A stretch of DNA of 64,000 bases from Candidatus Kaiserbacteria bacterium (GTDB lineage Bacteria; Patescibacteriota; Minisyncoccia; Phycocordibacterales; UBA918). The notes beneath the pieces were generated by a model that did no database searches, had not been told where the DNA came from, and worked only from the letters and a program-made list of their open reading frames with translations. Shown here in pieces: positions 11,342 through 57,567 of this stretch. The stretch covers positions 89,686-153,685 of the forward strand of contig CP064968.1 in assembly GCA_016699245.1 (NCBI GenBank), in the 5' to 3' direction. Every line of letters starts with the position of its first letter. Position 1 is the first letter of the stretch. Position numbers and translations under genes: made by a program.

Positions 11342-11526
11342 AATATCTGCTCTCCATGGTCTTACCTCCTCTATGGAGGGGTGCTGAGGATATTTTGCTA
11401 CAAAAATAATACTTATGCACTATTCAAGAATCATTGAGTACACAAAATAAAGTAAAGGCGTGATATTATGAATACGACTGTAGAAGTCTTCCTGTCTATT
11501 GACTTGCACAGTTATTTTAATACGTC

Positions 11527-20913: not shown

Positions 20914-20919
20914 AGTGTC

Positions 20920-21381: not shown

Positions 21382-21391
21382 ACTATTCGTG

Positions 21392-22552
21392 TTAATTACT
21401 GAGGTGCTTTGTGACTTCGTAGATAGGAGTAATGACTGACACCGCAATGAGCCCTACCAAAATACCCATAGTCATAAGAAGTATAGGCTCAATTGAATTA
21501 GAAAGACTTTTTGTACTTTCATCTACTTCAGTCTCATAGAGACTCGACAGATAACTAAGCGTAACAGAAAGACTCCCTGTCGTTTCGCCAATAAGAAGCA
21601 TGTGGGGAAGCATATCAGGGAAGATGGAGAGATAGTGCATCATCCTGGTAGAAATTTTTTCACCTTTTTCAATATGCTCTGCAATATCGAGATATGCATT
21701 TTTGTATATGGTGTTTTTGGTAACACGGGCAGTGATGCGCATTGCTTCCACGACACCCACACCAGCAGAAATGTTGAGCCCTACTGTACGGCAGAAATTG
21801 GCGCAGTTGTACGCGCGAGCTATGTTGCCGATGATGGGAAGTCGTAAAAGAATCCAGTCAGAGATAGTGCGAAGCCGGGGGAACACGTTCCGTGAAATAA
21901 TGAAGACGAGTACGGCACCAATCAAGCCAAAAAAAGTTACTAGCCCCCATGTTTCTAGATATACGCTTATCGCAAGGAGGATACGTGTGGTAAGAGGGAG
22001 GGCGATATTGAGAGATATAAAGATAGGCATAATCTTCGGGAAAATGAACATCACCAACAGACTCGTTACGCCGAGTGTTGCAATGGTGATGAAAACTGGG
22101 TAAACGAGTGCGCTCTGCACCTTACGCTTTAATGCTTGTTTTTTAGCGAGTTCATCAGCGAGGTATATAAGGTTTTCTGAGAGAATGCCATTGTTTTCGC
22201 CAATGCGAATTATGTTAATGGTGAATTCACCAAATAGATGTTCATACCTTGCAAGACTTGTGGAAAGAAATTGTCCCGCAGAAACGTCCTGAATGATTGT
22301 ATAAAAAATAATTCGCTTTCGTTTTGATTTGGTTTGCGCATGAATCATGGTCATACTTTCGAGTATGGAGACACCTGCTTTCACCAAGAATGAAAGTCGC
22401 TTTGCAAAGAGGACTTGTTCTTGAATTGAAAAATGAAGAAAAAGAGTTGAAGCAGTAGGGAAGGAGGTTGTGTGTGAAGTGATTGTATTATTCACTTGGT
22501 CACGAGATGGTCCACGAAATCGTGCAACAAGATTTTGCAGTTTTGAGTGCAT
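21392..22552 (-). CDS. pilC: type IV pilus assembly platform protein PilC (GspF family)
   Basis: 386 aa with two GspF repeats and 3 TM segments. Confidence 0.8.
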   Translation of the reverse strand: MHSKLQNLVARFRGPSRDQVNNTITSHTTSFPTASTLFLHFSIQEQVLFAKRLSFLVKAGVSILESMTMIHAQTKSKRKRIIFYTIIQDVSAGQFLSTSLARYEHLFGEFTINIIRIGENNGILSENLIYLADELAKKQALKRKVQSALVYPVFITIATLGVTSLLVMFIFPKIMPIFISLNIALPLTTRILLAISVYLETWGLVTFFGLIGAVLVFIISRNVFPRLRTISDWILLRLPIIGNIARAYNCANFCRTVGLNISAGVGVVEAMRITARVTKNTIYKNAYLDIAEHIEKGEKISTRMMHYLSIFPDMLPHMLLIGETTGSLSVTLSYLSSLYETEVDESTKSLSNSIEPILLMTMGILVGLIAVSVITPIYEVTKHLSN

Positions 22553-22648
22553 AGTGTGATGTAAATGATGTGCCTGTCATGGGGTCAGTGTCAAGAGACA
22601 GAGGTGTCTTAAAAAAAGTAACAAGGCGACGTCTTGATACTTTGATAC

Positions 22649-22692
22649 GAAAATCCCCACGGCGTGCGGAGCACGCCGTGGGGATTTTCTTG
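22649..22692. terminator. hairpin terminator downstream of the SGNH hydrolase gene
   Basis: aaatccccacggcgtgc-ggag-cacgccgtggggatttt (17-bp stem) with flanking T-run on the minus strand. Confidence 0.45.
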
Positions 22693-22702
22693 ATTTCCAA
22701 TA

Positions 22703-24487
22703 TTATCTGTTCAAGAGGGCTCGCAGGTATGGCTCTACGCGGTCGGCGATGAGGTCGTGGCCGTTGTCGCGGGGGTGGACGAGGTCGGTTGTTCGGAATG
22801 GATTTCCGAGGATAGCTTCCATCACATTGGGGGTGTACGCTGCACCATTGTCCCAAGCGAGATTTCGGTACTGTGAGTCATAGTTAATCAAGAAGTAGTT
22901 TTTGTATCCGAGAATAAGCACTGCGGAGCCATCATCCGTGATACGCTCCACAATCGTGTCGAGATTTGAAAAGATTGTTGCGGTATTCACTTTTTGCAAG
23001 AAGTCGTTTCCTCCGAGGAATACAATAACGAGTGAAGGATTCTTTGAAAGCACATCAGCATCGAGACGGGCGAGTGCTTCAGTGGTGGTATCTCCATTTA
23101 CTCCCGCATTAATGATAGGCACGCTCAGTCTTTCACTGAGGAGAGAAACATAGTCATTGCCAATCGTCGCATCGCGTCCAAAGGTGATACTGTCACCGAG
23201 TGCAATGACTGGTCCATTTCGAAGTGGATAGTTTTCAATTCGTTCGAGGTTTACATACACCACACTAATCTCCGCACTTTTTACAATTACTGGATATCCC
23301 GTAGTAGAGATTCTGTACCCAAAGTAGTATGTGCCTGCCTTTGGTATTCTTATTGTTTTAGTTCCTGAGGGTGAGGAGCCTACCGTCACAGAGGAAACCT
23401 GTCTATCGGTCTCAGCATCATAGAGAATAATGTCGTCACCAGATTGGTGAGCATACGCCGGTGCAGCGTAGGTTATCGTAATCGGCTGGTCAATTTCTGC
23501 TGTAGTTATATTTGTCGAGAGGGTATAGAGAGATGCATCGGGAAGTTGTACGATGACTGGTCCTGCTGTTTTTACCACGGGCCTCCCTGTGATATTTATG
23601 CGGTATCCTATAGTGTAGTTACCGGGTGTGCGGAGGATGAATGTCTTCGTCCCAGTGTTCGTTTTGCCTATTGATTGAGAAGAAACCACACGGTTTGTAA
23701 CGGTATCAAACACGATGATACTGTCAGAAGACTGATAGGTAGTTGCTGGACTCCTGTAGGTTACGATAAGTGGCTCACCCATGCGTAGGGTTGTTGCATT
23801 GGTGGTAAGTGTATATTGTGATGCATCGGGGAGGCTCACGGTCACTGGCCCCACGGTTTTGATGATGGGTCTGCCGGTAATTCCCAGACGGTATCCTACG
23901 GTGTATATGCCGGGATTACGTACTACAAGGGTCTTTGTGCCAGAAGAGATTTTTCCGAGTGACCCAGAAGTCACCACTCTGTTTGTTGCCGTATCAATAA
24001 GCACAATACTGTCCGAAGATTGGTGCGCGCCCGTAGGTGCTGCGTAGGTTATTACGAGGGATTCACCACTCTGGAGCGATGTCTTATTGACCGAGAGTGT
24101 GTAGAGGGATGCACTCGGGACGTTGACCGTAACGCTTTCTGAAGTAGCAAGTATGGGGTATTTTGAAATACTTGCACGATACTTAAAAACATAGGTACCC
24201 GGCTTAAAGGTGGAAAATGTTTTGGTTCCACTTTGCGCATCACCGACACGCTGTGTTGCCACGATGTAGTTAGTATCCGCGTTCACCATGAGAATACTGT
24301 CGCTCGATCTATATGAGGTTGGAGCAACACTGTATGAGACAGTAATAGACTGACCAATAGACACCGAGGTAGGGGAGGCGGTAAGGGTTACATCTGCTGC
24401 ATGTGCGGACAGGCTAAACCCAAATAAAATGACTAAAAATATAGCGATACTAAAAGCGCATTTTGGGAGCGCATAAAGAAAATTCAT
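22703..24487 (-). CDS. secreted SGNH/GDSL hydrolase with four N-terminal ~100-aa tandem Ig-like repeats
   Basis: Signal peptide; four tandem repeats (each ...Y/A-x-PT/ATxYxSSDSIxLxDTxTNRVVxSxSxGKxxxGTKT...); C-terminal VIALGDSITFG (GDS block I), GVNGDTT (block II), FLGGNDF (block III) and DLVHPRDNGH (block V DxxH). Confidence 0.7.
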   Translation of the reverse strand: MNFLYALPKCAFSIAIFLVILFGFSLSAHAADVTLTASPTSVSIGQSITVSYSVAPTSYRSSDSILMVNADTNYIVATQRVGDAQSGTKTFSTFKPGTYVFKYRASISKYPILATSESVTVNVPSASLYTLSVNKTSLQSGESLVITYAAPTGAHQSSDSIVLIDTATNRVVTSGSLGKISSGTKTLVVRNPGIYTVGYRLGITGRPIIKTVGPVTVSLPDASQYTLTTNATTLRMGEPLIVTYRSPATTYQSSDSIIVFDTVTNRVVSSQSIGKTNTGTKTFILRTPGNYTIGYRINITGRPVVKTAGPVIVQLPDASLYTLSTNITTAEIDQPITITYAAPAYAHQSGDDIILYDAETDRQVSSVTVGSSPSGTKTIRIPKAGTYYFGYRISTTGYPVIVKSAEISVVYVNLERIENYPLRNGPVIALGDSITFGRDATIGNDYVSLLSERLSVPIINAGVNGDTTTEALARLDADVLSKNPSLVIVFLGGNDFLQKVNTATIFSNLDTIVERITDDGSAVLILGYKNYFLINYDSQYRNLAWDNGAAYTPNVMEAILGNPFRTTDLVHPRDNGHDLIADRVEPYLRALLNR

Positions 24488-24544
24488 ATGAGTATATTGT
24501 ACATCTTTTTTGACAAAATGTCAATAATATGAAGTTTTCATAAG

Positions 24545-25900
24545 TTACTCACTTATGGTACGAAGAATTTCCGCGAGGGTGGTTTTGCCTGCGACTGCTT
24601 TACGTAATCCATCTTCAAACATGGTAGTCATGCCTTCCTCAATCGCAATATTTTTAAGCACGACAGAAGATTTGCGTTCAAGAATTGCTTCGCGCACACG
24701 AGGGGAAGTAACAAGTACTTCGTATATTCCGATACGCCCCGAAAATCCAGTACGATCACACGCTTCACAGCCTTTACCTTTATAAAAAGTATTCGGAATG
24801 TTTTTAAGATTTTGTTTGAGGCGGTCGGGGAGTATGCGAAGGAGATTATGGCGCTCTGCCTCAGTGAGTGCGTGTGCTTCGGTACAATGTGGACATATTT
24901 TGCGAACAAGACGCTGACCGATGGCGATATTGATTGTTGATGCCACAAGGTATGCGTCGATTCCCATATCAAGAAGACGGGGAAGTGTGGTGGCTGCGTC
25001 ATTCGTATGAAGTGTGGAGAGAAGAAGGTGACCGGTGAGTGCAGTGTTGATTGCAATGCCTGCCGTCTCTGTATCACGTATTTCACCCACCATAATGATG
25101 TTGGGGTCCTGGCGCAAAATTGAGCGAAGTCCTTGTGCAAACGTGAGATTGGTACGAGTATTAATTTGAATTTGTGTGATACCCGGAATTGCGTACTCGA
25201 TGGGGTCTTCAATAGTGATAATCGATACCTCTTTTTTATTGAGCATTTTAATAAGCGTATAGAGGGATGTAGTTTTTCCGGAGCCTGTGGGGCCTGTGGC
25301 GAGAATCATTCCGTGGGGTTGCGCTATGGCGCGTTCAATTTTTTCTTGATCTTGAGGACTAAAGCCAAGCATCTCAAGTGTAAAATTGGATGAGTGATCG
25401 GCAAGGAGACGCAAGACGGCATTTTCCCCATAGTAGGTGGGAGTGATAGAAACACGAATATCGATAGGCTTGGTGTCGTTGGTGCCGGTTTGCATACGAA
25501 AGCGCCCGTCTTGCGCTGCCTGGTGCTCATCAGTGCGGAGCCCAGAAAGCACTTTGATGCGTGAAATGACTTCAGAGAGAATATTTTTTGGGAACGTACA
25601 CTTATCTTGTAATACACCATCAATGCGTAAACGCACGACCGCATCTTGTTCGGTGGGGTCAATGTGTATATCGGATGCACGAAGTGCGTATGCTTCTTCA
25701 ATACACGTTTGTACAAACTCAATAATAGGAATTGGTCCTGGGCGTGAAAGTATTTCCCGCACACTACCAGTTGTCGTTGGTGTTTGGCCCTGGTCTTTTA
25801 TGTCGATACTTTTCTCACCTTGAGACTGGTTCATGGTTTTGTGATTATGTGCTTCAGTGTGGGCCTTGTCTAGAGAGTCGGCTGGACAAGTGTTGGACAC
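24545..25900 (-). CDS. pilB: type IV pilus assembly ATPase PilB (GspE family)
   Basis: GPTGSGKTT Walker A, GEIRD Walker B/Asp box, His box, and tetracysteine motif CPHC...CEAC. Confidence 0.85.
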   Translation of the reverse strand: MSNTCPADSLDKAHTEAHNHKTMNQSQGEKSIDIKDQGQTPTTTGSVREILSRPGPIPIIEFVQTCIEEAYALRASDIHIDPTEQDAVVRLRIDGVLQDKCTFPKNILSEVISRIKVLSGLRTDEHQAAQDGRFRMQTGTNDTKPIDIRVSITPTYYGENAVLRLLADHSSNFTLEMLGFSPQDQEKIERAIAQPHGMILATGPTGSGKTTSLYTLIKMLNKKEVSIITIEDPIEYAIPGITQIQINTRTNLTFAQGLRSILRQDPNIIMVGEIRDTETAGIAINTALTGHLLLSTLHTNDAATTLPRLLDMGIDAYLVASTINIAIGQRLVRKICPHCTEAHALTEAERHNLLRILPDRLKQNLKNIPNTFYKGKGCEACDRTGFSGRIGIYEVLVTSPRVREAILERKSSVVLKNIAIEEGMTTMFEDGLRKAVAGKTTLAEILRTISE

Positions 25901-26392: not shown

Positions 26393-26561
26393 ATTGAACT
26401 GGTTTTATTTAATAAAAATTATTTCAAATTATTTTTATAGTATCATTCTCTGAAAACTAATAAGATATCCATATTTTTATTGCTTTTTTCATAAATACCT
26501 GTATAACAGGCGTAGTAATTCCCCTCGTTCTTCAACAATTTAACACACCAGGAGGTGTATC

Positions 26562-28136
26562 GTGGCTGAAAGAAGAAATGGCACTCGCTTAAAGACTGCT
26601 ACCGGTCGTAAATCAATAAGACAAGAACCACCTCGTGAACTTCCCATCGTGCGCGCAATTCGCAAATTTGCCAATCGTGCGTGCGACGTATCAAGTATTG
26701 GTGAAGGCATGAGAAAGATTTTTGTGCTCGATACCAATGTGCTCATGCATGACCCCACGTGTATCTTCCGCTTTGAAGAACACGACGTCTTCATTCCGTT
26801 GATGACGCTTGATGAACTCGATAACCACAAGAAGGGAAAAGAGGAAATAAACCGAAATGTGCGTCAAGTTTTACGCGCAATCAAGGAACTTGCGGATGTA
26901 AAGGGATGCAAAATTACTGAAGGCATCGATCTTACTGGTCCATCAGAAGGACTTGCGACGGGCCGTCTCTTTTTGCAGAGCAAAAATATGGAAGGCGCAC
27001 TTCCTACATCCCTTCCAATGACCAAGGTTGATCATCAAATTCTCTCGGTGATCACCCACATGCAAGACAGTGAAGTGTATAAGGGTTGCATGATTATCTT
27101 GGTCACCAAAGATATCAATATGTATATCAAGGCGAAAGCGCTTGGCTACATGGTTGAAGACTATCTGAATGACAAGGTAATTGAAGATTCAGATTTGCTC
27201 TACTCGGGCGCTCTGGAACTTCCTGATGATTTTTGGTCAAATCATTCAGACGGTATGGTGGCCAAGAAAGATAGGCAGAGTGGGATATCAACATATCGTG
27301 TTACCGGTCCACTCTGTTCTACTTTTTACGTCAATCAGTTGCTTTGGTCGGAGTCACTCGATCTCGAATGTATCGTTCGTGAAGTGTCAGGGGATCATGC
27401 AGTGCTCCAGACGCTCGTGAATTACCGGAATCAAAAACACTCTGTCTTCGGTATTCACCCGAGAAATCGTGAGCAGAACTTCGCGTGTAATTTGCTCCTT
27501 GATCCGGACATTGATTTTGTATCTTTGCTTGGGCAGGCAGGTACCGGTAAAACCCTTCTCGCTATCGCCGCCGGTCTTCACCAGACGATTGATGGAAATA
27601 GGTTTGGTGACATCATCATGACCCGAGTCACCGTTTCAGTTGGCGAGGACATCGGCTTTCTTCCGGGTACCGAGGAAGAAAAGATGGGGGCATGGATGGG
27701 TGCACTCGAAGATAATCTTGAAGTGCTCGTATCAGTGGATGGGAATCATTCCAAGGATGACGGTGCATACGGTATCAATCATATTCCTTCGGACATAGCA
27801 CGAAAGGAGACACATCAACTGATAAGGAATCGTATCAAAGTGAAGTCACTCAACTTCATGCGTGGCCGTACATTTTTCAGGAGATACCTTATCATCGACG
27901 AGGCTCAAAATCTTACACCGAAGCAGATGAAAACTCTCATCACGCGAGCCGGTCCCGGCACCAAGGTGATTTGTCTTGGCAACATAGGGCAGATTGATTC
28001 ACCCTACCTTACGGAAGGGTCGTCGGGTCTTACCTATGTCGTTGATCGGTTCAAAGGTCAAAAACATGTGGGACACATCATCTTGCAGCGTGGTGAGCGT
28101 TCACGCCTTGCCGATTTGGCCAATGAATCACTCTGA
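26562..28136 (+). CDS. PhoH2-type protein (N-terminal PIN domain + PhoH ATPase, YlaK-like)
   Basis: GTG start 7 nt after AGGAGG; FVLDTNVLMHDP PIN motif; GQAGTGKT Walker A; IIDEAQN Walker B. Confidence 0.75.
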   Translation: MAERRNGTRLKTATGRKSIRQEPPRELPIVRAIRKFANRACDVSSIGEGMRKIFVLDTNVLMHDPTCIFRFEEHDVFIPLMTLDELDNHKKGKEEINRNVRQVLRAIKELADVKGCKITEGIDLTGPSEGLATGRLFLQSKNMEGALPTSLPMTKVDHQILSVITHMQDSEVYKGCMIILVTKDINMYIKAKALGYMVEDYLNDKVIEDSDLLYSGALELPDDFWSNHSDGMVAKKDRQSGISTYRVTGPLCSTFYVNQLLWSESLDLECIVREVSGDHAVLQTLVNYRNQKHSVFGIHPRNREQNFACNLLLDPDIDFVSLLGQAGTGKTLLAIAAGLHQTIDGNRFGDIIMTRVTVSVGEDIGFLPGTEEEKMGAWMGALEDNLEVLVSVDGNHSKDDGAYGINHIPSDIARKETHQLIRNRIKVKSLNFMRGRTFFRRYLIIDEAQNLTPKQMKTLITRAGPGTKVICLGNIGQIDSPYLTEGSSGLTYVVDRFKGQKHVGHIILQRGERSRLADLANESL

Positions 28137-29432: not shown

Positions 29433-30866
29433 ATGAGGGATATAAAATACAGAGATCACGCGGTTGCACCTATGTTATGGTCACGATACGCTACCTATTT
29501 TTTTGTGATGCTCGCTATTCTTCTTATCCCAGTCTTATTAGCATTCAAAGTAGAAGCAGACGTTGCTATTTTTCATTCAGACACGTATCTCGAGCAGGGC
29601 GTTGAGATGACGCATGAGTCAGGAACTGAAAAATATATACAGTATGAACACTTTTGGAGTGATTTTGAAGGAGTTGTTCCCGAAGATGCTCTTGTAAACA
29701 ATATTACACTCCATCTTACGTGGTCACCGGTGACGCGCGTGGTCTCTGATGGGGCAGTGGAAGATTCTCCAAAAGAGGTGACTCCAGAAAGTACTCATGA
29801 AGAGGTGATGAATGAACTACCTACGCCTGAAGAGCAATTAGGGGAATCATTGCATGAGGAACTCCCTGTAGAGCCAGACGTTGCTATTCCTGAAGAAACA
29901 GAACCTTCTTCAGAGGCGGTTATTCCTGTAGACAGTATTGATGAGCCTGAAGAAGTAATTATAGAAGAATCCACCTCTGATTCGCCTCCCGAAGCGAGTG
30001 ATAATTCATCGGAGACTGTGGGATTTGAGGAGGTTTCATGGAATCATTTGTATTCATTAGTTAATGCGCAGATTGAAGAGGAAGTTGCAACAAATACAAT
30101 AGTAATAACTGAAGGAAGTGAACCTGAAGTGATAATTACTGAGTCTATTTCGACCACTTCAGGATTTGTCTCGGAAGATATTTTGATTGAAAATCAGGCT
30201 GAGAAGTTCTTTGAAGTGCGGTATACGATTGATGGGGTGACATGGCAAGAGCTTGGGAATGTTGGATTTGATGATGCACAGGATACAGTATTTGATCTTT
30301 CACCTATAGGTATTGATGCAATACCAAACCTACGCGTTGCTATTCGATACACCGTTCGTGATGGAGAAACGACGAAGATTATTTTTGATTCAATGCGACT
30401 CGAAGTCGGATATGGAGCACCGGTCATAGAGGAAGTCGCTCCGCCCACCCTACAAAATGATAGCGAACCAAATTTTGACGTTGGTGCAATTAAGGCTGAT
30501 GTCCAATCGGAAAATATTCGAGCGGTTGTACTCGAAAGAGGAGGAGTCTTTGAGTTTTGGTACTCCGTCACTGACCCGCAATCAGGTGCAGTTTTTTGGA
30601 ATAAAATTCTTGGAGGAGGGGCTGTTGATGAGAATGCACCGATCGGTATTAAAAAACGGACGATATTTTGGCTTGATCGCAATCAACAAACACTCTTTGG
30701 GTTTGCTGTTGATGAAGAATCAATATTTGCAACTCCATTTCAAGATGACCAGGAAAGTAAAGTCTTTCTCCTTCCATTTACAGATGAAAATGGCAAGCCG
30801 TGGGAAGCACTATTTAATTCCTCAGAGAACGTACTTGAGTTCAGTAAAGTAAAAAGTGAATCATGA
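29433..30866 (+). CDS. membrane-anchored surface protein with E/P/S-rich acidic linker
   Basis: N-terminal TM (FFVMLAILLIPVLLAF), ~120-aa acidic low-complexity region, then a ~250-aa globular region; stop overlaps the start of the giant gene (ATGA). Confidence 0.5.
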   Translation: MRDIKYRDHAVAPMLWSRYATYFFVMLAILLIPVLLAFKVEADVAIFHSDTYLEQGVEMTHESGTEKYIQYEHFWSDFEGVVPEDALVNNITLHLTWSPVTRVVSDGAVEDSPKEVTPESTHEEVMNELPTPEEQLGESLHEELPVEPDVAIPEETEPSSEAVIPVDSIDEPEEVIIEESTSDSPPEASDNSSETVGFEEVSWNHLYSLVNAQIEEEVATNTIVITEGSEPEVIITESISTTSGFVSEDILIENQAEKFFEVRYTIDGVTWQELGNVGFDDAQDTVFDLSPIGIDAIPNLRVAIRYTVRDGETTKIIFDSMRLEVGYGAPVIEEVAPPTLQNDSEPNFDVGAIKADVQSENIRAVVLERGGVFEFWYSVTDPQSGAVFWNKILGGGAVDENAPIGIKKRTIFWLDRNQQTLFGFAVDEESIFATPFQDDQESKVFLLPFTDENGKPWEALFNSSENVLEFSKVKSES

Positions 30867-33800
30867 TGCGAGAGCGGCTCTTTCCATACATACGAGCGTT
30901 GTCGAAAAGACACATACTCATGGTGGGTGTTAGTTTTTTTATTATGGGCGTGTGTATTCTTGGCACACGACACCTTCTCGTTGGTGAAAAAGTTGGGCAG
31001 TTTATAAGGACGAATCGGGCGCTTGCACACTACCAATTCACCCCCACGCATGGCACCATCGTCACCGGCGCATCCACCACCATCACCTCAGCTACCGGAA
31101 ATACTACTGAAGGAGTCAATGTGGGTTCATGGAAGGGAACACTCTCCGACGATAACTATCACTGGGTCGTCGCTGGGGCAGGAGCAAGCGGACTTGATGT
31201 CAACCTCACCATGGGTGGGGTACAGTTAAACGGCGCCAACAAACTCATTGTCCAAACAGAATTTGACCTCGATGCGACCATTCTTGCAACTGAGGTACAG
31301 ATTTGTGACTGGACGTCATCAACTGATGTGGACGATGCCGCAGACAGTGAATGTACGGGTGGCGGGTGGCGTACCCTCAACACAAAAAATGAACTGCAAG
31401 GCCCGCAACGCCTCGTACACAGCACCGGTATCCCATTTCAGTGGCACCTTTATAACGGGTATTGGTCTACCGGCACGACCGGGGGAGCAGCGGTTGATAC
31501 GCCACTCACGAACTTCCTCAACGGTGCCGATCAGATGAAATTCCGATACTTCTCTGCCTCATCGAGCGTGTCCGAAATCGCCATTGACTACCTTCGTGTG
31601 TACGCGGTCGTCGACCCGGTCTATCACGCGGGAGGATTTGTACAGGAATCAGGCGGCACGCCGAGTGGCCACTATGGCAACACCTTTAGCGTCGGCCATT
31701 CCGTGACCGCACAATTCGCGGTGACTACCGGTGATAATATCTACCTCGGTGTCCCCGGTACGGTTGCGACTACATCAAACTTCTACCTCACCTTCAAGAA
31801 CGTGAAGACATACACCGGCATGAATACCATTCTCGTGAACGCCGAGACACTCTGTTCTCTCGCAACGGCTGGTCTCCAGTACCGATTCAAGATTCGCAAT
31901 TTTAATACCAGTATCTGGGAAGATATTTCACAACCACTCGACTGTTCTACCAACGGGTTTTTCAACAACTTTGCCTTAAACAACATCGTCATTGATGACT
32001 ACATCAATGCGTCAAACGAAATATGGGTGGGTGTCTCTGCGCTCTCAAACTCGACGACACAAATTCGCATCGACTCCATCTACCTCATGCTCGGCACTAC
32101 CAACACCGACACGAACAGTTGTGAAATATCATTTGGATCAAACACTGCAGGACGCATTGCCTCAAACCCCTCTGCGCCAGGAGCGGATCGTATCCAAGCA
32201 CTCACCTCAGATGGTACGTATATGTACGCTTCGGGATACGACAGTGCGGGAATCGATAATGAGTGGCGCATAGAGAAGCGCAATCTTTCCGACGGAGACC
32301 TCGTCTCGGCATTTGGTGTTGGTGGCGCAACCTCAACCGATCCCTCAGTTGGTGCCGACCAAATTTTCGCCATCGCCACAACCTCGGGTGCGATATTTGT
32401 TGCGGGGTATGACACAGCAGCGGGCACGGGGCAGTGGCGTATCGAGAAGCGCGATAGTACCGATGGTACGCTCGAAACCGCGTTTGATACGGATGGCATT
32501 ATCACCACAAATCCTTCAGCAAGCCTCGATCACATCAATGCGATTGCCACTGATGCGAGTTACCTCTACGTGGCAGGAGTTGAAAATACTACGAGTGGTA
32601 CGTGGCGCATTCATAAGTATGACATCACCACCGGTGCACTCGTTACCGCATTTGATGGAGATGGTATCGCGACGAGCACGCTTGCTGCCTCGGGCGACGA
32701 ACGACCGCAGGCGCTCAAGGTGGATGGCGACTATCTGTACATCGGGGGATACGACAACCTCTCCGGGAACATCGAGTGGCGTCTCGAGAAGCGCAACAAG
32801 ACCACCGGTGCACTTTGTGCGGGTGGAGGGGAGTGTGCCGCAGGTGCATTTGATACCGATGGTGTGGTGCAGACAAACCCCTCTTCGGGTATTGATGCAA
32901 TACGTGCACTCGCCATTACCGACGCACACGTGTTCCTTGCAGGATACGACTCATCAACCACAAACAACCAGTGGCGCATCGAAAAGCGCGATATCGCGAC
33001 CGGCGCACTCGATACTGCATTCGATACCGATGGTATTATGCAATATAACCCAAGTACCGGTGCTGACTGGATAACCGCACTCGCACTCGATGACACCACA
33101 CTCTACGCGATTGGAAATGTGAGCAACGGTGCGTGGCGTGTTGATGCTCGCGATATCACGACCGGTGCCTCGACGACGTTCTCCGGTAACGGTACGACAC
33201 TCTCTGAAGATGGTGGTGATGACCAGCCACTTGCCGTCGTACAGGAGGGTGGGTATCTCTATGTTGCAGGATACGGCACTGCTCCAGGAGACAACCAATG
33301 GCTCATCGAAAAACTTGCGACGAACACAGGGCTGCGGAGCACCGACAGCTTTGGTGCAAATGATTGCACCGGAACACGAAACATTGATATCACCGGCGGG
33401 AACAGAGATGCATGGACAATCCAGACACAAGATGAATCAACGAATCACAGTACTCCATACTATGCACTCGATACCGACGGTGATGCAGCAATTGAGGAAG
33501 CGGGATCAGCAACCATCGGGTTTTCGGTTGCGGTACCGGGAAACAGTGCTGTCACCGGTATCTACTGGGCAGGACGCGCAATGAACGGTGCAGGAGCGGG
33601 TACGGTGCGCCTTGCCGTGAAGGACTACTCAGGATTCACCGGCCTTACAGGAGGCAGAAGTCTCGTCGGTTCCTCACCAGGAATTGCTATGACATACACT
33701 GATCCCTTGATAGTTGGTGGTATTACCTCAGGAGGTATGGCAGGGTACCTCACAAACCCTGAGGATTATATTGATACCTTAAATAATGAGATGTCACTCA

Positions 33801-34270
33801 GTCTCGTGACCAACTCGGATGGTGCGAGTACCACGAATGCCGTGAACGTATGGGACTTTGCGATGGTGAGTTTTAGTTGGGTGGAGGATCCTGATCATGA
33901 AAGCGCCACGTATCAATTCACCCCCACGCATGGCACCATCGTCACCGGCGCATCCACCACCATCACCTCAGCTACCGGAAATACTACTGAAGGAGTCAAT
34001 GTGGGTTCATGGAAGGGAACACTCTCCGACGATAACTATCACTGGGTCGTCGCTGGGGCAGGAGCAAGCGGACTTGATGTCAACCTCACCATGGGTGGGG
34101 TACAGTTAAACGGCGCCAACAAACTCATTGTCCAAACAGAATTTGACCTCGATGCGACCATTCTTGCAACTGAGGTACAGATTTGTGACTGGACGTCATC
34201 AACTGATGTGGACGATGCCGCAGACAGTGAATGTACGGGTGGCGGGTGGCGTACCCTCAACACAAAATGA
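30863..34270 (+). CDS. giant surface beta-propeller protein, part 1 (N-terminal TM + repeat unit 1 + start of unit 2; truncated by TGA created by an A4 tract)
   Basis: N-terminal TM; ~60-aa repeats of form AGYD...WRIEKRDxxDGTLxTAFDTDGI resembling delta-60-type beta-propeller repeats; terminates at 34268 where copy 2 has A4 instead of A6. Confidence 0.6.
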   Translation: MMRERLFPYIRALSKRHILMVGVSFFIMGVCILGTRHLLVGEKVGQFIRTNRALAHYQFTPTHGTIVTGASTTITSATGNTTEGVNVGSWKGTLSDDNYHWVVAGAGASGLDVNLTMGGVQLNGANKLIVQTEFDLDATILATEVQICDWTSSTDVDDAADSECTGGGWRTLNTKNELQGPQRLVHSTGIPFQWHLYNGYWSTGTTGGAAVDTPLTNFLNGADQMKFRYFSASSSVSEIAIDYLRVYAVVDPVYHAGGFVQESGGTPSGHYGNTFSVGHSVTAQFAVTTGDNIYLGVPGTVATTSNFYLTFKNVKTYTGMNTILVNAETLCSLATAGLQYRFKIRNFNTSIWEDISQPLDCSTNGFFNNFALNNIVIDDYINASNEIWVGVSALSNSTTQIRIDSIYLMLGTTNTDTNSCEISFGSNTAGRIASNPSAPGADRIQALTSDGTYMYASGYDSAGIDNEWRIEKRNLSDGDLVSAFGVGGATSTDPSVGADQIFAIATTSGAIFVAGYDTAAGTGQWRIEKRDSTDGTLETAFDTDGIITTNPSASLDHINAIATDASYLYVAGVENTTSGTWRIHKYDITTGALVTAFDGDGIATSTLAASGDERPQALKVDGDYLYIGGYDNLSGNIEWRLEKRNKTTGALCAGGGECAAGAFDTDGVVQTNPSSGIDAIRALAITDAHVFLAGYDSSTTNNQWRIEKRDIATGALDTAFDTDGIMQYNPSTGADWITALALDDTTLYAIGNVSNGAWRVDARDITTGASTTFSGNGTTLSEDGGDDQPLAVVQEGGYLYVAGYGTAPGDNQWLIEKLATNTGLRSTDSFGANDCTGTRNIDITGGNRDAWTIQTQDESTNHSTPYYALDTDGDAAIEEAGSATIGFSVAVPGNSAVTGIYWAGRAMNGAGAGTVRLAVKDYSGFTGLTGGRSLVGSSPGIAMTYTDPLIVGGITSGGMAGYLTNPEDYIDTLNNEMSLSLVTNSDGASTTNAVNVWDFAMVSFSWVEDPDHESATYQFTPTHGTIVTGASTTITSATGNTTEGVNVGSWKGTLSDDNYHWVVAGAGASGLDVNLTMGGVQLNGANKLIVQTEFDLDATILATEVQICDWTSSTDVDDAADSECTGGGWRTLNTK

Positions 34271-36770
34271 ACTGCAAGGCCCGCAACGCCTCGTACACAG
34301 CACCGGTATCCCATTTCAGTGGCACCTTTATAACGGGTATTGGTCTACCGGCACGACCGGGGGAGCAGCGGTTGATACGCCACTCACGAACTTCCTCAAC
34401 GGTGCCGATCAGATGAAATTCCGATACTTCTCTGCCTCATCGAGCGTGTCCGAAATCGCCATTGACTACCTTCGTGTGTACGCGGTCGTCGACCCGGTCT
34501 ATCACGCGGGAGGATTTGTACAGGAATCAGGCGGCACGCCGAGTGGCCACTATGGCAACACCTTTAGCGTCGGCCATTCCGTGACCGCACAATTCGCGGT
34601 GACTACCGGTGATAATATCTACCTCGGTGTCCCCGGTACGGTTGCGACTACATCAAACTTCTACCTCACCTTCAAGAACGTGAAGACATACACCGGCATG
34701 AATACCATTCTCGTGAACGCCGAGACACTCTGTTCTCTCGCAACGGCTGGTCTCCAGTACCGATTCAAGATTCGCAATTTTAATACCAGTATCTGGGAAG
34801 ATATTTCACAACCACTCGACTGTTCTACCAACGGGTTTTTCAACAACTTTGCCTTAAACAACATCGTCATTGATGACTACATCAATGCGTCAAACGAAAT
34901 ATGGGTGGGTGTCTCTGCGCTCTCAAACTCGACGACACAAATTCGCATCGACTCCATCTACCTCATGCTCGGCACTACCAACACCGACACGAACAGTTGT
35001 GAAATATCATTTGGATCAAACACTGCAGGACGCATTGCCTCAAACCCCTCTGCGCCAGGAGCGGATCGTATCCAAGCACTCACCTCAGATGGTACGTATA
35101 TGTACGCTTCGGGATACGACAGTGCGGGAATCGATAATGAGTGGCGCATAGAGAAGCGCAATCTTTCCGACGGAGACCTCGTCTCGGCATTTGGTGTTGG
35201 TGGCGCAACCTCAACCGATCCCTCAGTTGGTGCCGACCAAATTTTCGCCATCGCCACAACCTCGGGTGCGATATTTGTTGCGGGGTATGACACAGCAGCG
35301 GGCACGGGGCAGTGGCGTATCGAGAAGCGCGATAGTACCGATGGTACGCTCGAAACCGCGTTTGATACGGATGGCATTATCACCACAAATCCTTCAGCAA
35401 GCCTCGATCACATCAATGCGATTGCCACTGATGCGAGTTACCTCTACGTGGCAGGAGTTGAAAATACTACGAGTGGTACGTGGCGCATTCATAAGTATGA
35501 CATCACCACCGGTGCACTCGTTACCGCATTTGATGGAGATGGTATCGCGACGAGCACGCTTGCTGCCTCGGGCGACGAACGACCGCAGGCGCTCAAGGTG
35601 GATGGCGACTATCTGTACATCGGGGGATACGACAACCTCTCCGGGAACATCGAGTGGCGTCTCGAGAAGCGCAACAAGACCACCGGTGCACTTTGTGCGG
35701 GTGGAGGGGAGTGTGCCGCAGGTGCATTTGATACCGATGGAGTGGTGCAGACAAACCCCTCTGCTGGTGTCGATACAATACGCGCACTCGCCATTACCGA
35801 CACACATGTTTTCGTTGCAGGATACGACTCCTCAACCACGAACAACCAGTGGCGCATCGAAAAGCGCGATATCGCGACCGGCGCACTTGAAACTGCATTC
35901 GATACCGATGGTATTATGCAATATAACCCAAGTACCGGTGCTGACTGGATAACCGCACTCGCACTCGATGACACCACACTCTACGCGATTGGAAATGTGA
36001 GCAACGGTGCGTGGCGTGTTGATGCCCGTGACATAACAACAGGTGCCTCGACGACGTTCTCCGGTAACGGTACGACACTCTCTGAAGATGGTGGTGATGA
36101 CCAGCCACTTGCCGTCGTACAGGAGGGTGGGTATCTCTATGTTGCAGGATACGGCACTGCTCCAGGAGACAACCAATGGCTCATCGAAAAACTTGCGACG
36201 AACACAGGGCTGCGGAGCACCGACAGCTTTGGTGCAAATGATTGCACCGGAACACGAAACATTGATATCACCGGCGGGAACAGAGATGCATGGACAATCC
36301 AGACACAAGATGAATCAACGAATCACAGTACTCCATACTATGCACTCGATACCGACGGTGATGCAGCAATTGAGGAAGCGGGATCAGCAACCATCGGGTT
36401 TTCGGTTGCGGTACCGGGAAACAGTGCTGTCACCGGTATCTACTGGGCAGGACGCGCAATGAACGGTGCAGGAGCGGGTACGGTGCGCCTTGCCGTGAAG
36501 GACTACTCAGGATTCACCGGCCTTACAGGAGGCAGAAGTCTCGTCGGTTCCTCACCAGGAATTGCTATGACATACACTGATCCCTTGATAGTTGGTGGTA
36601 TTACCTCAGGAGGTATGGCAGGGTACCTCACAAACCCTGAGGATTATATTGATACCTTAAATAATGAGATGTCACTCAGTCTCGTAACGAACTCGGATGG
36701 TGCAAGTACCACGAATGCCGTGAACGTATGGGACTTTGCGATGGTGAGTTTTAGTTGGGTGGAGCCGGAA
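31023..36770 (+). repeat. 2 x 2,874-bp near-identical tandem duplication inside the giant surface gene
   Basis: Copy 1 31023-33896 and copy 2 33897-36770; the 5' ~1.85 kb is identical apart from the A-tract, with clustered substitutions in the 3' third. Confidence 0.9.
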
Positions 36771-37172
36771 CCCGTGCCAGTCTATTCGATATCAATTACC
36801 AGTGATGGAACAATACAGTATGGGTTTGTAGACCTGAGTGTAGCGAGTTCGACCGTTGGTGGGGATACACAGGCAGCAGAAAATACGGGAAGCCTTAATG
36901 AAAAAATAAATATTCGTTCAAGTAACGCTCTTGGCGGGACGAGCTGGCTTCTTGCATCAGTAATTGGAAGTAATCAGTATACTCATGAATTTTCGACAAC
37001 GACGGGAGTAACGTGGAAAACAATGCCCGATAGCAGTACATACGTGGTTGCAGATCCGTCTGTGACACCAAGTGGTACGGTAGATTTTGATTTTAGACTC
37101 ACGATGCCAAGCGGCACCACTGATTTTGTTGAAAAATCAATTACTATTACAGTCCAGGCCGTCGCCCCATAG
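34266..37172 (+). CDS. giant surface beta-propeller protein, part 2 (remainder of repeat unit 2 + unique C-terminal ~130-aa domain)
   Basis: Frame continuing copy 2 after the A-tract shift (ORF-track 34128..37172; the first ~45 residues of that ORF are out-of-frame read-through). Confidence 0.6.
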   Translation, partial: NELQGPQRLVHSTGIPFQWHLYNGYWSTGTTGGAAVDTPLTNFLNGADQMKFRYFSASSSVSEIAIDYLRVYAVVDPVYHAGGFVQESGGTPSGHYGNTFSVGHSVTAQFAVTTGDNIYLGVPGTVATTSNFYLTFKNVKTYTGMNTILVNAETLCSLATAGLQYRFKIRNFNTSIWEDISQPLDCSTNGFFNNFALNNIVIDDYINASNEIWVGVSALSNSTTQIRIDSIYLMLGTTNTDTNSCEISFGSNTAGRIASNPSAPGADRIQALTSDGTYMYASGYDSAGIDNEWRIEKRNLSDGDLVSAFGVGGATSTDPSVGADQIFAIATTSGAIFVAGYDTAAGTGQWRIEKRDSTDGTLETAFDTDGIITTNPSASLDHINAIATDASYLYVAGVENTTSGTWRIHKYDITTGALVTAFDGDGIATSTLAASGDERPQALKVDGDYLYIGGYDNLSGNIEWRLEKRNKTTGALCAGGGECAAGAFDTDGVVQTNPSAGVDTIRALAITDTHVFVAGYDSSTTNNQWRIEKRDIATGALETAFDTDGIMQYNPSTGADWITALALDDTTLYAIGNVSNGAWRVDARDITTGASTTFSGNGTTLSEDGGDDQPLAVVQEGGYLYVAGYGTAPGDNQWLIEKLATNTGLRSTDSFGANDCTGTRNIDITGGNRDAWTIQTQDESTNHSTPYYALDTDGDAAIEEAGSATIGFSVAVPGNSAVTGIYWAGRAMNGAGAGTVRLAVKDYSGFTGLTGGRSLVGSSPGIAMTYTDPLIVGGITSGGMAGYLTNPEDYIDTLNNEMSLSLVTNSDGASTTNAVNVWDFAMVSFSWVEPEPVPVYSISITSDGTIQYGFVDLSVASSTVGGDTQAAENTGSLNEKINIRSSNALGGTSWLLASVIGSNQYTHEFSTTTGVTWKTMPDSSTYVVADPSVTPSGTVDFDFRLTMPSGTTDFVEKSITITVQAVAP

Positions 37173-37255
37173 TTTTAGAAAGTATAAAAAATGTTGATAA
37201 GCGTGAAGTAATCATGATGTTACTTGATACAATATAATAGAATTAATTAAATACT

Positions 37256-37807
37256 ATGTACCATCTTAATCACCACCAACTTTTTGGAGTAATAGAAAAA
37301 GCACGACACCAACTTTTTTTCATTGTAGTAAGTATGCTTTCGATCGCGATTGTTTTTGGTGGTATGAATGCTTTTGCACAGAGTACTGATACGGTGACTG
37401 CTACCGTGACCGCAACGAATCTTGCAGTCTCTGTTTCTGATGGTACTATCGCCTTTGGCTCAGTGGCGCTCAATACCGCAACAACGACCGTTGGCACCGC
37501 GCAAACACAAACCGTTTCTAATGATGGTTCGGCTGCAGTGCTTAATGTTAAATCGAGCAATGCAACAAATGGTACATTGTGGACTCTCGGCACAAGTCCT
37601 GGTTCGGATATTTTTAAACTCGAAGTATCAACAACGACGGGATCAACATACGGGACGCTTCAGGCTACTGACGTATATCTCACCGCATCATCAACGTTTG
37701 CCTCACTCACAAATCAAAACGTTGATTTCCGCTTCACGACACCAACTGTCTCCACAGACTTCGTCCAAAAGTCACTCACTATTACCGTGCAGGTGACGAC
37801 ACCATAA
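37256..37807 (+). CDS. small secreted protein paralogous to the C-terminal domain of the giant protein
   Basis: TM/signal, then a domain aligning with 36771..37172 (LWTLGTS vs SWLLASV; EVSTTTGSTYG vs EFSTTTGVTWK; DFRFTTP vs DFDFRLTMP; KSLTITVQV vs KSITITVQA). Confidence 0.5.
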   Translation: MYHLNHHQLFGVIEKARHQLFFIVVSMLSIAIVFGGMNAFAQSTDTVTATVTATNLAVSVSDGTIAFGSVALNTATTTVGTAQTQTVSNDGSAAVLNVKSSNATNGTLWTLGTSPGSDIFKLEVSTTTGSTYGTLQATDVYLTASSTFASLTNQNVDFRFTTPTVSTDFVQKSLTITVQVTTP

Positions 37808-37819
37808 TTACCTATTTAG

Positions 37820-38479
37820 ATGAAATATGGTATACCTATCTACATGCGATTAGCCACATACTCAGTTTTAGTAAAAATTCTGTTTGTCTTTGGGATTGTT
37901 TCTGTACTATTTTTACTCTCCTCAGAGGAGATGTTTGCGAAAGTTGGTGTGGGGATGGGTGCAGGTGAGATTCGAGTAACAGAATCCATAAAGCCAGGGG
38001 GGATTTACTCACTTCCCAGCCTTCGTGTGTTTAATACCGGAGATGAAACGACTACGTATGGAATGAATATTGCGTATCATCAGGACAATCCACAACTACG
38101 ACCAGGAAAATCATGGTTTTCTTTTACTCCTGCAACGTTCACGATAGAACCAGGTGAAAGTCAGGAAGTTCAGATATCGATGTCAGTCCCGGTGAAAACT
38201 GATCCGGGAGAATATTTTGCTTTTCTCGAAAGCGGACCAGTTGCGGAGGGTGGCCCAGGAACATCGGTAGGTGTTGCTGTTGCTACAAAACTCTATTTTG
38301 ATGTTGTACATGCAAATCTTTGGAGCGCACTGACGTACAGAGTTTCTACATTTCTCACGATATATGCACCGTGGTCATGGATTGGCTTAGGGCTTCTCGT
38401 GTGTGGTGCCGTTGCTTTTATCTTTGCGCGATTCTTTTCCCTGGACGTTTCCTTACGAAAAAAGAAAACACAAGAGTAA
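37820..38479 (+). CDS. membrane-anchored beta-sandwich surface protein (DUF916/DUF3324-like architecture)
   Basis: N-terminal signal/TM, Ig-like segment (FTIEPGESQEVQISMSVPVKTDPGEYFAFLE), C-terminal TM + basic tail RKKKTQE. Confidence 0.4.
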   Translation: MKYGIPIYMRLATYSVLVKILFVFGIVSVLFLLSSEEMFAKVGVGMGAGEIRVTESIKPGGIYSLPSLRVFNTGDETTTYGMNIAYHQDNPQLRPGKSWFSFTPATFTIEPGESQEVQISMSVPVKTDPGEYFAFLESGPVAEGGPGTSVGVAVATKLYFDVVHANLWSALTYRVSTFLTIYAPWSWIGLGLLVCGAVAFIFARFFSLDVSLRKKKTQE

Positions 38480-38484
38480 TTTTA

Positions 38485-39462
38485 ATGGTCTCAAAATCTT
38501 ACGTTTTTGTTTTTTCTATACTCATCCTGTGCGCTACTGCTTTTCTCAGTTATTTTGTGGTGAGTTATGCAGCAGATATTAATGCAACCATAACAACGGG
38601 CTTATTTACTCCACTCAGCCCTCTCAATCTCGCAGTCTCTATTTCTGACAGAAGTGTCGATCTTTCATGGTCGCCACCAGCATCGAATGGGGGATCGGTA
38701 CTTATTGATTATGTGATTGAATATAAGCTCACAACTGGGGGCGTTTGGGCTGTTTTTGTTGACTCCGTTTCAACAAGTACATCAGTAACAGTAACGGGTC
38801 TTACCAATGATACCTCCTATGATTTTAGGGTTTCTGGAGTGAATGCGATTGGTCAAGGCCCCGCTTCTACACCGGTGAGCGCAACACCGGGTGCTCCCGC
38901 TCAGGTACTCGTCACTGGTATGAGCGATGTAACCATTCCAACTATCAGTACATCGGTGAGAATTACCAACGAAGGTGCGGTTGCATACGAGTACCAGTAC
39001 ACGTGGTGTGTGACGAATTCTGACGTTAATCTGTGTGGAGGAGGGGATGATATTTTTAATTCCACCGCAGCAAAACTTATTCTTCCGGGAGAGAGTTGGG
39101 ATACGAGCCTTAGTTCTACGGTACCAATAATCGGCAACTACTGGTTTCATGTGCAAGTCCTGTTTGGCTCTGATTCTTCGTATGCAAGCCAATCATTTAC
39201 GACACTGAGTGAACCCAGTGGTGGTGGGGGAGGAGGGGGAAGCAGTGGGTCAAAAAGTAAGTCTCGGTCTTGCTCGGGCGGTGACTTTAACCGAGATAAG
39301 ATTGTGAACTTGGTCGACTTTTCAATTTTCCTCATGTCGTATAACAAACCTGCACCATTCCCCAATCCTTGTGTGGATATCAATAGTGACACAAAAGTAA
39401 ACGTGGTTGATTTTTCTATTCTTCTGACACAATGGGGTAAAAAGCCGATTCTCTATAAATAA
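38485..39462 (+). CDS. secreted FN3-domain protein with Gly-rich linker and C-terminal type-I dockerin
   Basis: Signal peptide; FN3 (LSWSPPASNGGSVLIDYVIEY...TSYDFRVSGVNAIG); GGGGGGSSGS linker; two Ca-binding dockerin loops exactly matching D1-x-N3-x-D5-x-x-V8-N9-x-x-D12 (DFNRDKIVNLVD, DINSDTKVNVVD) each followed by FSI(F/L)L helix. Confidence 0.65.
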   Translation: MVSKSYVFVFSILILCATAFLSYFVVSYAADINATITTGLFTPLSPLNLAVSISDRSVDLSWSPPASNGGSVLIDYVIEYKLTTGGVWAVFVDSVSTSTSVTVTGLTNDTSYDFRVSGVNAIGQGPASTPVSATPGAPAQVLVTGMSDVTIPTISTSVRITNEGAVAYEYQYTWCVTNSDVNLCGGGDDIFNSTAAKLILPGESWDTSLSSTVPIIGNYWFHVQVLFGSDSSYASQSFTTLSEPSGGGGGGGSSGSKSKSRSCSGGDFNRDKIVNLVDFSIFLMSYNKPAPFPNPCVDINSDTKVNVVDFSILLTQWGKKPILYK

Positions 39463-39467
39463 ATTGT

Positions 39468-40340
39468 ATGACACTCACGCATCTTTCTCATTTTTATAAA
39501 ATCAGTGTGGTTATCATATTGTTTTTTTGTGCGCAAATCACCTTTGCAGCGCACGTGACATTTGAAGTGGTTCCGGCACTTGTGCCCGATGATACGGCAA
39601 CAATTATTGAAGTGCGGATGAATCCGGATGGGGTACCCATTAATGCGGTTGAGGGTACGATAGGGCTCTTTGGTGCAGGACTATCAGCCGTCTCCTCAAT
39701 TATTGTTGAAACCGGTGGTTCCGCACTGACACTCTGGCCAAGTATCCCTGAGTACTCACCTTTAGAAAAGGTGATTCGATTCACCGGCGGCACTCCCGAA
39801 ACATTTTCCGGAGACGTATTACTATTTCGCATGAGAATCTTTTCAAAAAAACCAGGAGAAATTACCACGTCGTGGCTCGGAGGCTCAGCATATCAGAGTG
39901 ATGGAATCGGTACTAAAGAAGGTGTTTCCTCACGTTCACTCACCGTATCACTTGCTCAGAATGAACCAAATCAAATAAACGCAGCATCGATCGATTCAAC
40001 ACCGCCTCGCTTTGAAGATATTCTAATCTCACAAGATATAGATGCGTATGATGGAAAGCATTTTTTGAGTTGGAATGCAATTGATGATATCTCTGGAATC
40101 GCGAGGTATGAAGTTGTGGAAGGCACCACGACCACAGAAGTGAATAATGGTGTGTATGTATTACATGATCAAGAACGAAAGACGAAGATAATTGTTATTG
40201 CATATGACCATGCAGGAAATAGTACGTCAATCAAAGTTTCGACACGATACAATACACTCGGTATCATCGTCGTCGGTGTCGTAATTGCGCTCACGCTCCT
40301 TGGGGTTTTCATTGTTCGAAGAAGATACCTCAAGCAATAA
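39468..40340 (+). CDS. membrane-anchored cohesin-like domain protein (putative dockerin receptor)
   Basis: Signal peptide; ~140-aa N-terminal beta-sandwich with cohesin-like segments (VTFEVVPALVPDDTATIIEVRMNPDGVPINAVEGTIGL...LEKVIRFTGG); C-terminal TM LGIIVVGVVIALTLLGVFIV + RRRYLKQ. Confidence 0.4.
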   Translation: MTLTHLSHFYKISVVIILFFCAQITFAAHVTFEVVPALVPDDTATIIEVRMNPDGVPINAVEGTIGLFGAGLSAVSSIIVETGGSALTLWPSIPEYSPLEKVIRFTGGTPETFSGDVLLFRMRIFSKKPGEITTSWLGGSAYQSDGIGTKEGVSSRSLTVSLAQNEPNQINAASIDSTPPRFEDILISQDIDAYDGKHFLSWNAIDDISGIARYEVVEGTTTTEVNNGVYVLHDQERKTKIIVIAYDHAGNSTSIKVSTRYNTLGIIVVGVVIALTLLGVFIVRRRYLKQ

Positions 40341-57489: not shown

Positions 57490-57567
57490 GCTGATTATTT
57501 AATACGTTAATAAATATAAAGTGCAAGTGCACAGTATACAGGGAAGTTATTTTTCGTCACACCCTTG

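Follow-up and report, generated by a model that had tools for sequence, protein, structure and literature searches.

A near-perfect tandem two-unit surface-protein gene in a 'Ca. Kaiserbacteria' genome, split by a probable Nanopore homopolymer error

The alpha C/Rib proteins of group B Streptococcus, Esp of Enterococcus and Bap/Aap/SasG of Staphylococcus carry long tandem repeats that are identical at the DNA level and vary in number. Homopolymer contingency loci, among them Neisseria pilC and opc, the poly-G tracts of Campylobacter and the poly-C tract of Bordetella fim, truncate a surface protein through a frameshift in a mononucleotide run, and their tracts are usually at least 7-8 nucleotides (nt) long, conserved, and length-polymorphic both between and within strains. 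Here we evaluate a gene that recalls both, the large surface-protein gene at 30863-37172 (+ strand) of a 64-kb window (by which we mean the whole 64,000-nt stretch of contig CP064968 that was analysed), whose host is a 'Candidatus (Ca.) Kaiserbacteria' bacterium (Patescibacteria, Paceibacteria) from wastewater. The gene contains two near-identical tandem units, the second of which is interrupted by a 2-nt shortening of a short A-run, and we consider it likely that the two-unit gene is real and conserved, that its units evolve in concert and that the frameshift is a Nanopore homopolymer error left in the assembly.

Like the Gram-positive repeat surface proteins, the window protein would be exported and anchored, and in both cases in-frame units appear to be kept near-identical in DNA by recombination or gene conversion. 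The Gram-positive variation in repeat number also has an apparent counterpart, in that relatives of the window gene carry either one unit (contigs L001 and L002) or two (L024 and L025). No kinship in sequence or by Pfam links the window family to those proteins. Its units are also huge (952 amino acids (aa), multi-domain, with an inserted propeller), number only two and are joined by a conserved 8-aa linker, and the protein lacks an LPXTG anchor and belongs to a patescibacterial host of episymbiont type.

Homopolymer contingency loci and the window gene share a frameshift in a mononucleotide run of a surface gene that leads to truncation, but the window run is 6 nt (4 as found), arises as a by-product of non-conserved codons and is invariably A6 in those relatives that have it. 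A further comparison is with Nanopore consensus sequence, in which homopolymer indels are a recognised cause of false frameshifts (Sereika et al. 2022, PMC9262707). In R9-era indels of hybrid-polished assemblies (PMC9262707), as in the window, the change is confined to a homopolymer and gives a split gene call, and the window derives from a Flye --nano-raw/Racon/medaka/one Illumina Racon pipeline (PMC8012365) and holds a second such frameshift that is contradicted by short reads. The window differs in that its change is of 2 nt, not 1, and in that the tract lies in a 2.9-kb near-identical repeat, where short-read contigs cannot separate unit 1 from unit 2.

Tandem units and the interrupted frame

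The gene contains a near-perfect tandem repeat of ~2.86 kb that is far above chance. Offset scanning and gapped alignment place its period at 2880 nt (960 codons, in frame) 5' of the A-tract and at 2878 nt 3' of it, with 31031-31383 pairing with 33911-34263 at the former offset and 31386-33886 with 34264-36764 at the latter. Alignment of the copies delimits unit 1 at 31031-33886 (2856 nt, 952 codons) and unit 2 at 33911-36764 (2854 nt as assembled, 952 codons if its tract is A6), both on the + strand; unit 1 is further documented by direct-repeat family D1, whose propeller-blade copies number 5 in each unit, and by the structure model described below. Tandem Repeats Finder, with a period limit of 500, is blind to a 2.9-kb repeat, which was recovered by repeat search, offset scan and pairwise alignment. 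A sequence-only reading of this DNA had also reported near-perfect tandem copies, which stand at ~2.86 kb and at the 99.1% identity that we obtain across ~2.85 kb, but the boundaries that it proposed (31023-33896 and 33897-36770, period 2874) are out of register and give an ungapped identity of 24.8%.

Pairwise alignment reveals 25 substitutions and one 2-nt indel between the units. A single substitution (31033 C / 33913 T) is found up to position 32862, such that the identity first read over the initial ~1.85 kb holds save for this one change and the A-tract. The main divergence patch, at 32863-33163 on the + strand (counterpart 35741-36041), accounts for 21 of the 25 substitutions, and the remaining three lie in a second small patch at 33808-33826 / 36686-36704 on the same strand. 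Divergence inside these patches is ~10% and equals the divergence from the relative L001, and the patches look like remnants missed by gene conversion, judging from the copy alignment. When L001 is taken as outgroup at the 25 differing sites, it carries the unit-1 state at 14, the unit-2 state at 8 and neither at 3. Codon changes between the units comprise 17 synonymous versus 6 non-synonymous, from which both units have evolved as coding sequence and have been under purifying selection. They are separated by a 24-nt linker (33887-33910, + strand; GATCCTGATCATGAAAGCGCCACG, encoding DPDHESAT), which is single-copy, matches neither the sequence 5' of unit 1 nor that 3' of unit 2, and is homologous to a linker found family-wide.

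The sole indel between the units is A6 at 31384-31389 in unit 1 against A4 at 34264-34267 in unit 2 (both + strand), at the coordinates originally read. The A6 run of unit 1 falls in the codons ACA AAA AAT (Thr-Lys-Asn) and represents the ancestral in-frame state, being A6 also in L001, L002, L024, L025 and L005. The A4 run, which together with the following TGA (34264-34270, + strand) forms the suspected Nanopore consensus error, brings that TGA at 34268-34270 into frame and terminates an open reading frame (ORF) of 1135 aa at 30863-34270. The downstream frame is open to 37172, and two A's added to the tract restore a single 2103-aa ORF with no internal stop; the splitting of a ~6.3-kb frame by the TGA at 34268, as first described, is thus borne out. 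The full gene at 30863-37172 (2103 aa if the tract at 34264 is A6) is supported by the ORF list, by the repaired translation and by the orthologue P0123.

GenBank splits the gene into two coding sequences, IPH92_00505 (QQR65049.1, P0122, 30920-34270, 1116 aa) and IPH92_00510 (QQR65050.1, P0121, 34152-37172, 1006 aa), which probably constitute one gene. QQR65049.1 is an exact substring of window ORF1 (from Met20) and QQR65050.1 of ORF2 (from Met9), and both fall within the 90% cluster of the one-unit orthologue P0001. The truncated product includes 118 residues of unit 2, breaks off within a beta-sandwich domain and lacks the conserved tail, and annotated ORF2 opens with ~38 residues read out of frame and is devoid of an export signal. 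A reading of TGA as a sense codon was rejected, since this codon terminates ordinary genes of the window and does not occur in frame in the Paceibacteria orthologues.

Origin of the A4 tract

CP064968 is the metagenome-assembled genome (MAG) Damh_18-Q3-R51-60_MAXAC.235_fly, circular and 1,054,716 bp long (Singleton et al. 2021, Supplementary Data 3, PMC8012365), with GTDB taxonomy Paceibacteria; UBA9983_A; UBA2163, coverage of 33x by Illumina and 32x by Nanopore, a polymorphic rate of 0.0126 and a CheckM strain heterogeneity of 50 (PMC8012365). The 'fly' MAGs were assembled with Flye --nano-raw and then polished with Racon (Nanopore), medaka and one Racon round with minimap2-mapped Illumina reads (PMC8012365). 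Simulating a length change of 1 or 2 nt at every window homopolymer of at least 4 nt, we found genuinely split genes to be rejoined at two sites only, 34264 and the A7 run at 58303-58309. Further candidate split genes at 9259, 12709, 19366, 38416 and 51866 turned out to be adjacent distinct genes, which either match different Pfam families or are separate in relatives.

The A7 run splits the gene for 2,3-bisphosphoglycerate-independent phosphoglycerate mutase (iPGM; 57568-59086, - strand), for which independent short-read sequence is available. One part, ORF 58301-59086, covers Metalloenzyme positions 1-62 and iPGM_N positions 1-177, the other, ORF 57568-58323, covers iPGM_N positions 176-217 and Metalloenzyme positions 64-251, and the break falls exactly within the conserved FFNFRSDRAR motif. 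Deleting one A from the A7 run yields a 505-aa iPGM that is 100% identical to P0250. The short-read contig of P0250 (L026, from run SRR11674051 and of the same population) matches window 56483-59105 and has A6 and an intact iPGM, with one extra base in the A run and 2 terminal mismatches as the only differences from the window over 2.6 kb; the A7 at 58303 is therefore an assembly error, and even in unique sequence CP064968 has retained at least one homopolymer error that mimics a frameshift. The same run supplied a second contig used below, L003, and because L003 and L026 both match the window at 100% identity we infer that SRR11674051 belongs to PRJNA629478, the BioProject of sample Damh_18-Q3-R51-60; a literature search for the run returned no match. 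Elsewhere in this region, at 60750-60871 (- strand) and 5' of ORF 59207-60673, there is a ~124-nt degenerate copy (~80% identical) of the iPGM upstream region plus the first ~33 codons (MHDKKPTIFIVLDEWEHREE...stop), which looks like the remnant of a partial duplication.

This proven error, 24 kb away in the same window, favours a Nanopore origin for A4 as well, and the A6-to-A4 change is probably a leftover homopolymer error. Under this reading, a Nanopore homopolymer under-call at 34264 in the Flye assembly would have produced A4 in unit 2. Short reads with A6 would then match unit 1 without a flaw and the A4 draft of unit 2 less well, such that the under-call would be invisible to polishing and the single Illumina Racon round blind to it, and the organism would make the full 2103-aa protein. 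The position of the tract fits such a course, as its surroundings are perfectly identical to unit 1 over 350 nt on the upstream side and 1473 nt on the downstream side; the unique linker lies 354 nt before the tract. A4 is also the sole frame-breaking indel in ~13 kb of coding DNA aligned to L001. The sequence-only reading had held a homopolymer sequencing error in reserve as its fallback, and it is this fallback, with a Nanopore/Flye source and an iPGM frameshift contradicted by short reads, that we favour. More broadly, a frameshift in a 'complete' MAG of the Nanopore era should be checked against the reads before it is interpreted, above all inside long identical repeats.

Searches for the A4 allele itself were weakly informative, with no match to the A4-allele 27-mer in JGI metagenome contigs and a negative look-up for the 118-aa partial product expected from an A4 short-read contig. 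A 150-aa query around the tract retrieved only frameshifted fragments of distant homologues, P0124 and P0125, and none of the window's own population. These two, whose JGI contigs measure 100 kb and 234 kb, are homologue fragments of 145-149 aa with multiple local frame changes; such changes appear typical of error-prone long-read assembly, and false frameshifts in this family may not be unique to CP064968.

Several observations weigh against the reading that we favour. The A4 change removes 2 nt, while single-base under-calls are commoner, and the proven iPGM error is a +1 change, not a deletion. Broken genes were detected at no window site other than 34264 and 58303, so that elsewhere the assembly is well polished. 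The polymorphic rate of 0.0126 and the strain heterogeneity of 50 make a real minority or majority variant conceivable. For the concerted evolution of the units, the 100% unit identity seen in L024, L025 and the more distant two-unit homologue L004 may partly reflect short-read graph traversal. With a change of -2 nt, the artefact call for A4 is probable but short of certain.

An alternative is a real but non-adaptive 2-nt deletion, arisen by very recent slippage or deletion and either fixed or polymorphic, which would make A4 a strain variant or mark unit 2 as an incipient pseudogene and which we regard as unlikely. Its product would consist of unit 1 plus 118 residues of unit 2, with the C-terminal tail removed. 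The deletion is carried by the deposited sequence, the assembly is otherwise clean across 13 kb against L001, a -2 change is atypical of consensus error, the population is polymorphic, surface proteins are often hit by inactivating mutations, and the contrast between L001/L002 with one unit and the near-identical L024/L025 with two suggests a structurally plastic locus. Yet the change lies inside 1.8 kb of perfect identity and so must post-date the last conversion event, the 17:6 ratio of synonymous to non-synonymous changes implies that unit 2 was translated until very recently, no independent A4 allele was found by the JGI 27-mer scan or the product look-up, and the same window holds the proven homopolymer artefact.

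The sequence-only reading had instead proposed a slipped-strand phase-variation switch, in which the A-run would act as a contingency tract toggling between the 1135-aa truncated and the 2103-aa adhesin. Such a tract could revert by slippage or by gene conversion from unit 1. In its favour, the frameshift lies in a homopolymer of a surface-protein gene that adjoins type-IV-pilus-like genes, and with an A6 donor 2.9 kb upstream and units that clearly convert, reversion is mechanistically possible. The run is, however, an ordinary codon by-product of just 6 nt (4 as found), one of 108 A/T runs of at least 6 nt in the 64-kb window, which also holds 8 runs of 8 nt. It is not conserved either, as relatives code for the same or similar residues without it: L006 has ACC AAG AAC for the same Thr-Lys-Asn, and the tract position reads ACG CGG AAT in L004, ACG CGC AAC in L008 and ACC AAA GAC in L009. 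Where the run does occur, in L001, L002, L024, L025 and L005 only, no length variation is seen, all 7 of the 7 other unit copies with the run being A6 with intact ORFs. A switch would moreover require a change of two repeat units at one step, a truncated product that stops in mid beta-sandwich without the conserved tail, and an ORF2 product without an export signal, and a proven artefact of like kind lies nearby. We find the proposed switch unsupported and very unlikely, for its A6 is ordinary and non-conserved, shows no length variation in relatives and shares the window with a proven artefact. If true, it would provide a rare case of phase variation within the Candidate Phyla Radiation. We place equally little confidence in its extension, whereby A4 would be real and part of a two-state switch in a host-interaction protein, the frameshift in unit 2 leaving a one-unit form without the tail, with unit 1 serving as the conversion template that restores or spreads the lesion and unequal crossing-over toggling between one and two units, as in L001/L002 against L024/L025.

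Two-unit homologues and the reality of the duplication

Two units are present in most of 120 homologues. L024 and L025 (ENA ERZ28653834 / ERZ28653779), which are syntenic with the window at ~91% nt identity, encode an intact 2103-aa two-unit protein, with a linker identical to the window's DPDHESAT and A6 at both tract positions, and the intact 2103-aa orthologue P0123 is 92.8% identical. At ~70% aa identity, L004 (CAYMIV010000008.1) has an intact 2116-aa two-unit ORF with the linker DVDHPSSV, and in the partial L006 the linker EPSHSSVS is preceded by the final 128 nt of one unit and followed by a complete one; P0002 and P0027 also begin inside a preceding unit. The linker motif E-D-x-[DN]-H-x-S-x-T-YQF is kept even in proteins of 40-50% identity (for example WVEDPDHASATYQF in P0038/P0040). 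Among species-representative genome contigs the best match is 77% identical, and exact look-ups of window ORF1, of the 477-aa protein encoded upstream and of P0122 gave no match.

Because a homologous linker and intact two-unit ORFs recur in independent assemblies, the duplication is not an assembly artefact; it is genuine, and the two-unit design is apparently ancestral to the protein family. Identity between the units of one protein is ~42% in some clades, in which unit 1 and unit 2 can be followed as orthologues across species, and 73-84% in others. In the window's clade the units are 99-100% identical within a genome, while lineages differ by up to 30%: those of the window are 99% alike, as against 71% to the L004 units and ~91% (nt) to L001/L024. 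The simplest reading would be an ancestral two-unit gene whose units have been homogenised by gene conversion in this clade. With 952-aa units of 99-100% identity across lineages that are 30% diverged, the clade would offer a clean case of concerted evolution, within a widespread large surface-protein family of Patescibacteria that is unannotated (no Pfam domain) and appears to share the ancestral two-unit design.

Unit number may also vary. L001 and L002, assembled from sister samples, are 99.99% identical to L024 in the sequence that they share, yet show one unit only, and their contigs run unbroken across the unit borders (L001 gene at 6782-10213, 1143 aa, one unit; L024 gene at 5547-11858, 2103 aa, two units), which reflects either real unit-number polymorphism by unequal recombination or repeat collapse in short-read assembly. 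The possible variation would lie next to type-IV-pilus-like genes. Short-read contigs of related MAGs (L006 1-128, the L018 end and the L023 start) end or begin at or near unit borders, and L006 opens with 128 nt that are found again at the very end of its own unit. As the repeated unit fragments short-read assemblies, some of the many database homologues of ~1143 aa that pass for 'single-unit' may be two-unit genes that collapsed in assembly.

That the duplication itself is an assembly artefact, whether through expansion of a repeat or through tandem stitching of two strain haplotypes, is extremely unlikely, and we reject the corresponding fallback of a collapsed or expanded repeat that had been offered from the sequence. 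A metagenome assembly with strain heterogeneity is the source, and the nearest relative contigs, L001/L002, have one unit, both of which would suit an artefact. The unique 24-nt linker matches neither flank, however, so the junction cannot arise by simply joining the flanks, and the period is exactly 960 codons. The linker and the two-unit ORF recur in independent assemblies of other studies, together with the family-wide motif. Finally, the Logan short-read contig L003 of SRR11674051, 100% identical to window 36735-37938, starts exactly 30 nt (k-1, k=31) before the repeat end, which is where a graph branch would break it. A junction 25-mer found no match in JGI metagenome contigs.

We give next to no credence to a bypass of the stop, by programmed +1 frameshifting at AAA-UGA-A or by transcriptional slippage, that would give full-length protein from A4: a +1 shift at AAA UGA A does restore the frame and bears a superficial likeness to prfB CUU UGA C, but the sequence just before this site holds no Shine-Dalgarno-like stimulator, its orthologous and paralogous counterparts have an in-frame A6 and carry no conserved frameshift signal, A4 is much too short for polymerase slippage, for which ~9 A or more are needed, and TGA is an ordinary stop in the window.

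Predicted protein and gene neighbourhood

The protein opens with an N-terminal helix or membrane anchor (residues 2-39, hydrophobic core ILMVGVSFFIMGVCILG; 30866-30979, + strand) and closes with a 135-aa C-terminal tail domain plus stop (36765-37172, + strand), which occurs once only, after unit 2, and whose PEPVPVYSISITSDG tail is conserved in homologues and of low confidence in the model. Each unit is predicted to comprise a beta-sandwich region, an inserted seven-bladed beta-propeller with WRIEKR-type repeats (unit 1 ~32120-33322; unit 2 ~34998-36200) and a second beta-sandwich. These assignments come from an AlphaFold2 model of the 92% identical one-unit orthologue P0001 (mean predicted local distance difference test score (pLDDT) 77.6, predicted template-modelling score (pTM) 0.75), which places the helix at residues 2-39, the beta-sandwich region at ~57-415, the propeller at ~420-820 and the second beta-sandwich at ~830-1007, with the tail, residues 1011-1143, unmodelled or of low confidence. 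The description of the locus as a giant surface gene fits this predicted fold, in which the protein looks membrane-anchored, all-beta and extracellular, and the model suggests that it is best described as a binding protein anchored in the membrane and exposed outside the cell.

Pfam and NCBIfam searches of the protein gave no significant family. The best NCBIfam match, to the TIGR02608 delta-60 repeat, is below threshold (19.9 bits against a curated cut-off of 76.5, E = 4.8e-4), and Foldseek matches of the P0001 model are to reelin-repeat and carbohydrate-binding-module-like sandwiches and generic propellers, with PilY1 (3hx6) weak at rank 43. The window protein resembles delta-60 repeat proteins and the PilY1 C-terminal domain in its WRIEKR-type repeats, which form a predicted 7-bladed propeller, and resembles delta-60 repeat proteins and PilY1 adhesins in having T2SSE, T2SSF and pilin-like gene neighbours. 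It differs in scoring far under the cut-off and in matching generic propellers (WD40, clathrin N-terminal domain) at low TM-scores; a pilus link of the surface protein is conjecture.

The neighbourhood of the large gene is conserved in L001, L004 and L024 and may constitute a pilus-associated surface module. Upstream (18807-25900) lie genes for a pilin-like N_methyl protein, an LVIVD beta-propeller protein, T2SSF and T2SSE, and a translationally coupled 477-aa gene stands immediately 5' of the large gene. Downstream (37256-40340) are four small ORFs, one with an fn3 domain and a weak dockerin match. Rfam and tRNA scans of the 64-kb window returned nothing. A 594-aa ORF (22703-24487) and a PIN+PhoH 'PhoH2' gene (26562-28136) are missing from the otherwise syntenic L001 and L024, and the regions 22640-24555 and 26458-28122 represent lineage-specific insertions or deletions near the pilus-like genes. 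Compared with L001, the fn3/dockerin-like gene is longer by an in-frame insertion of 9 nt at 39223-39231 (GGTGGGGGA, Gly-rich), a minor length polymorphism.

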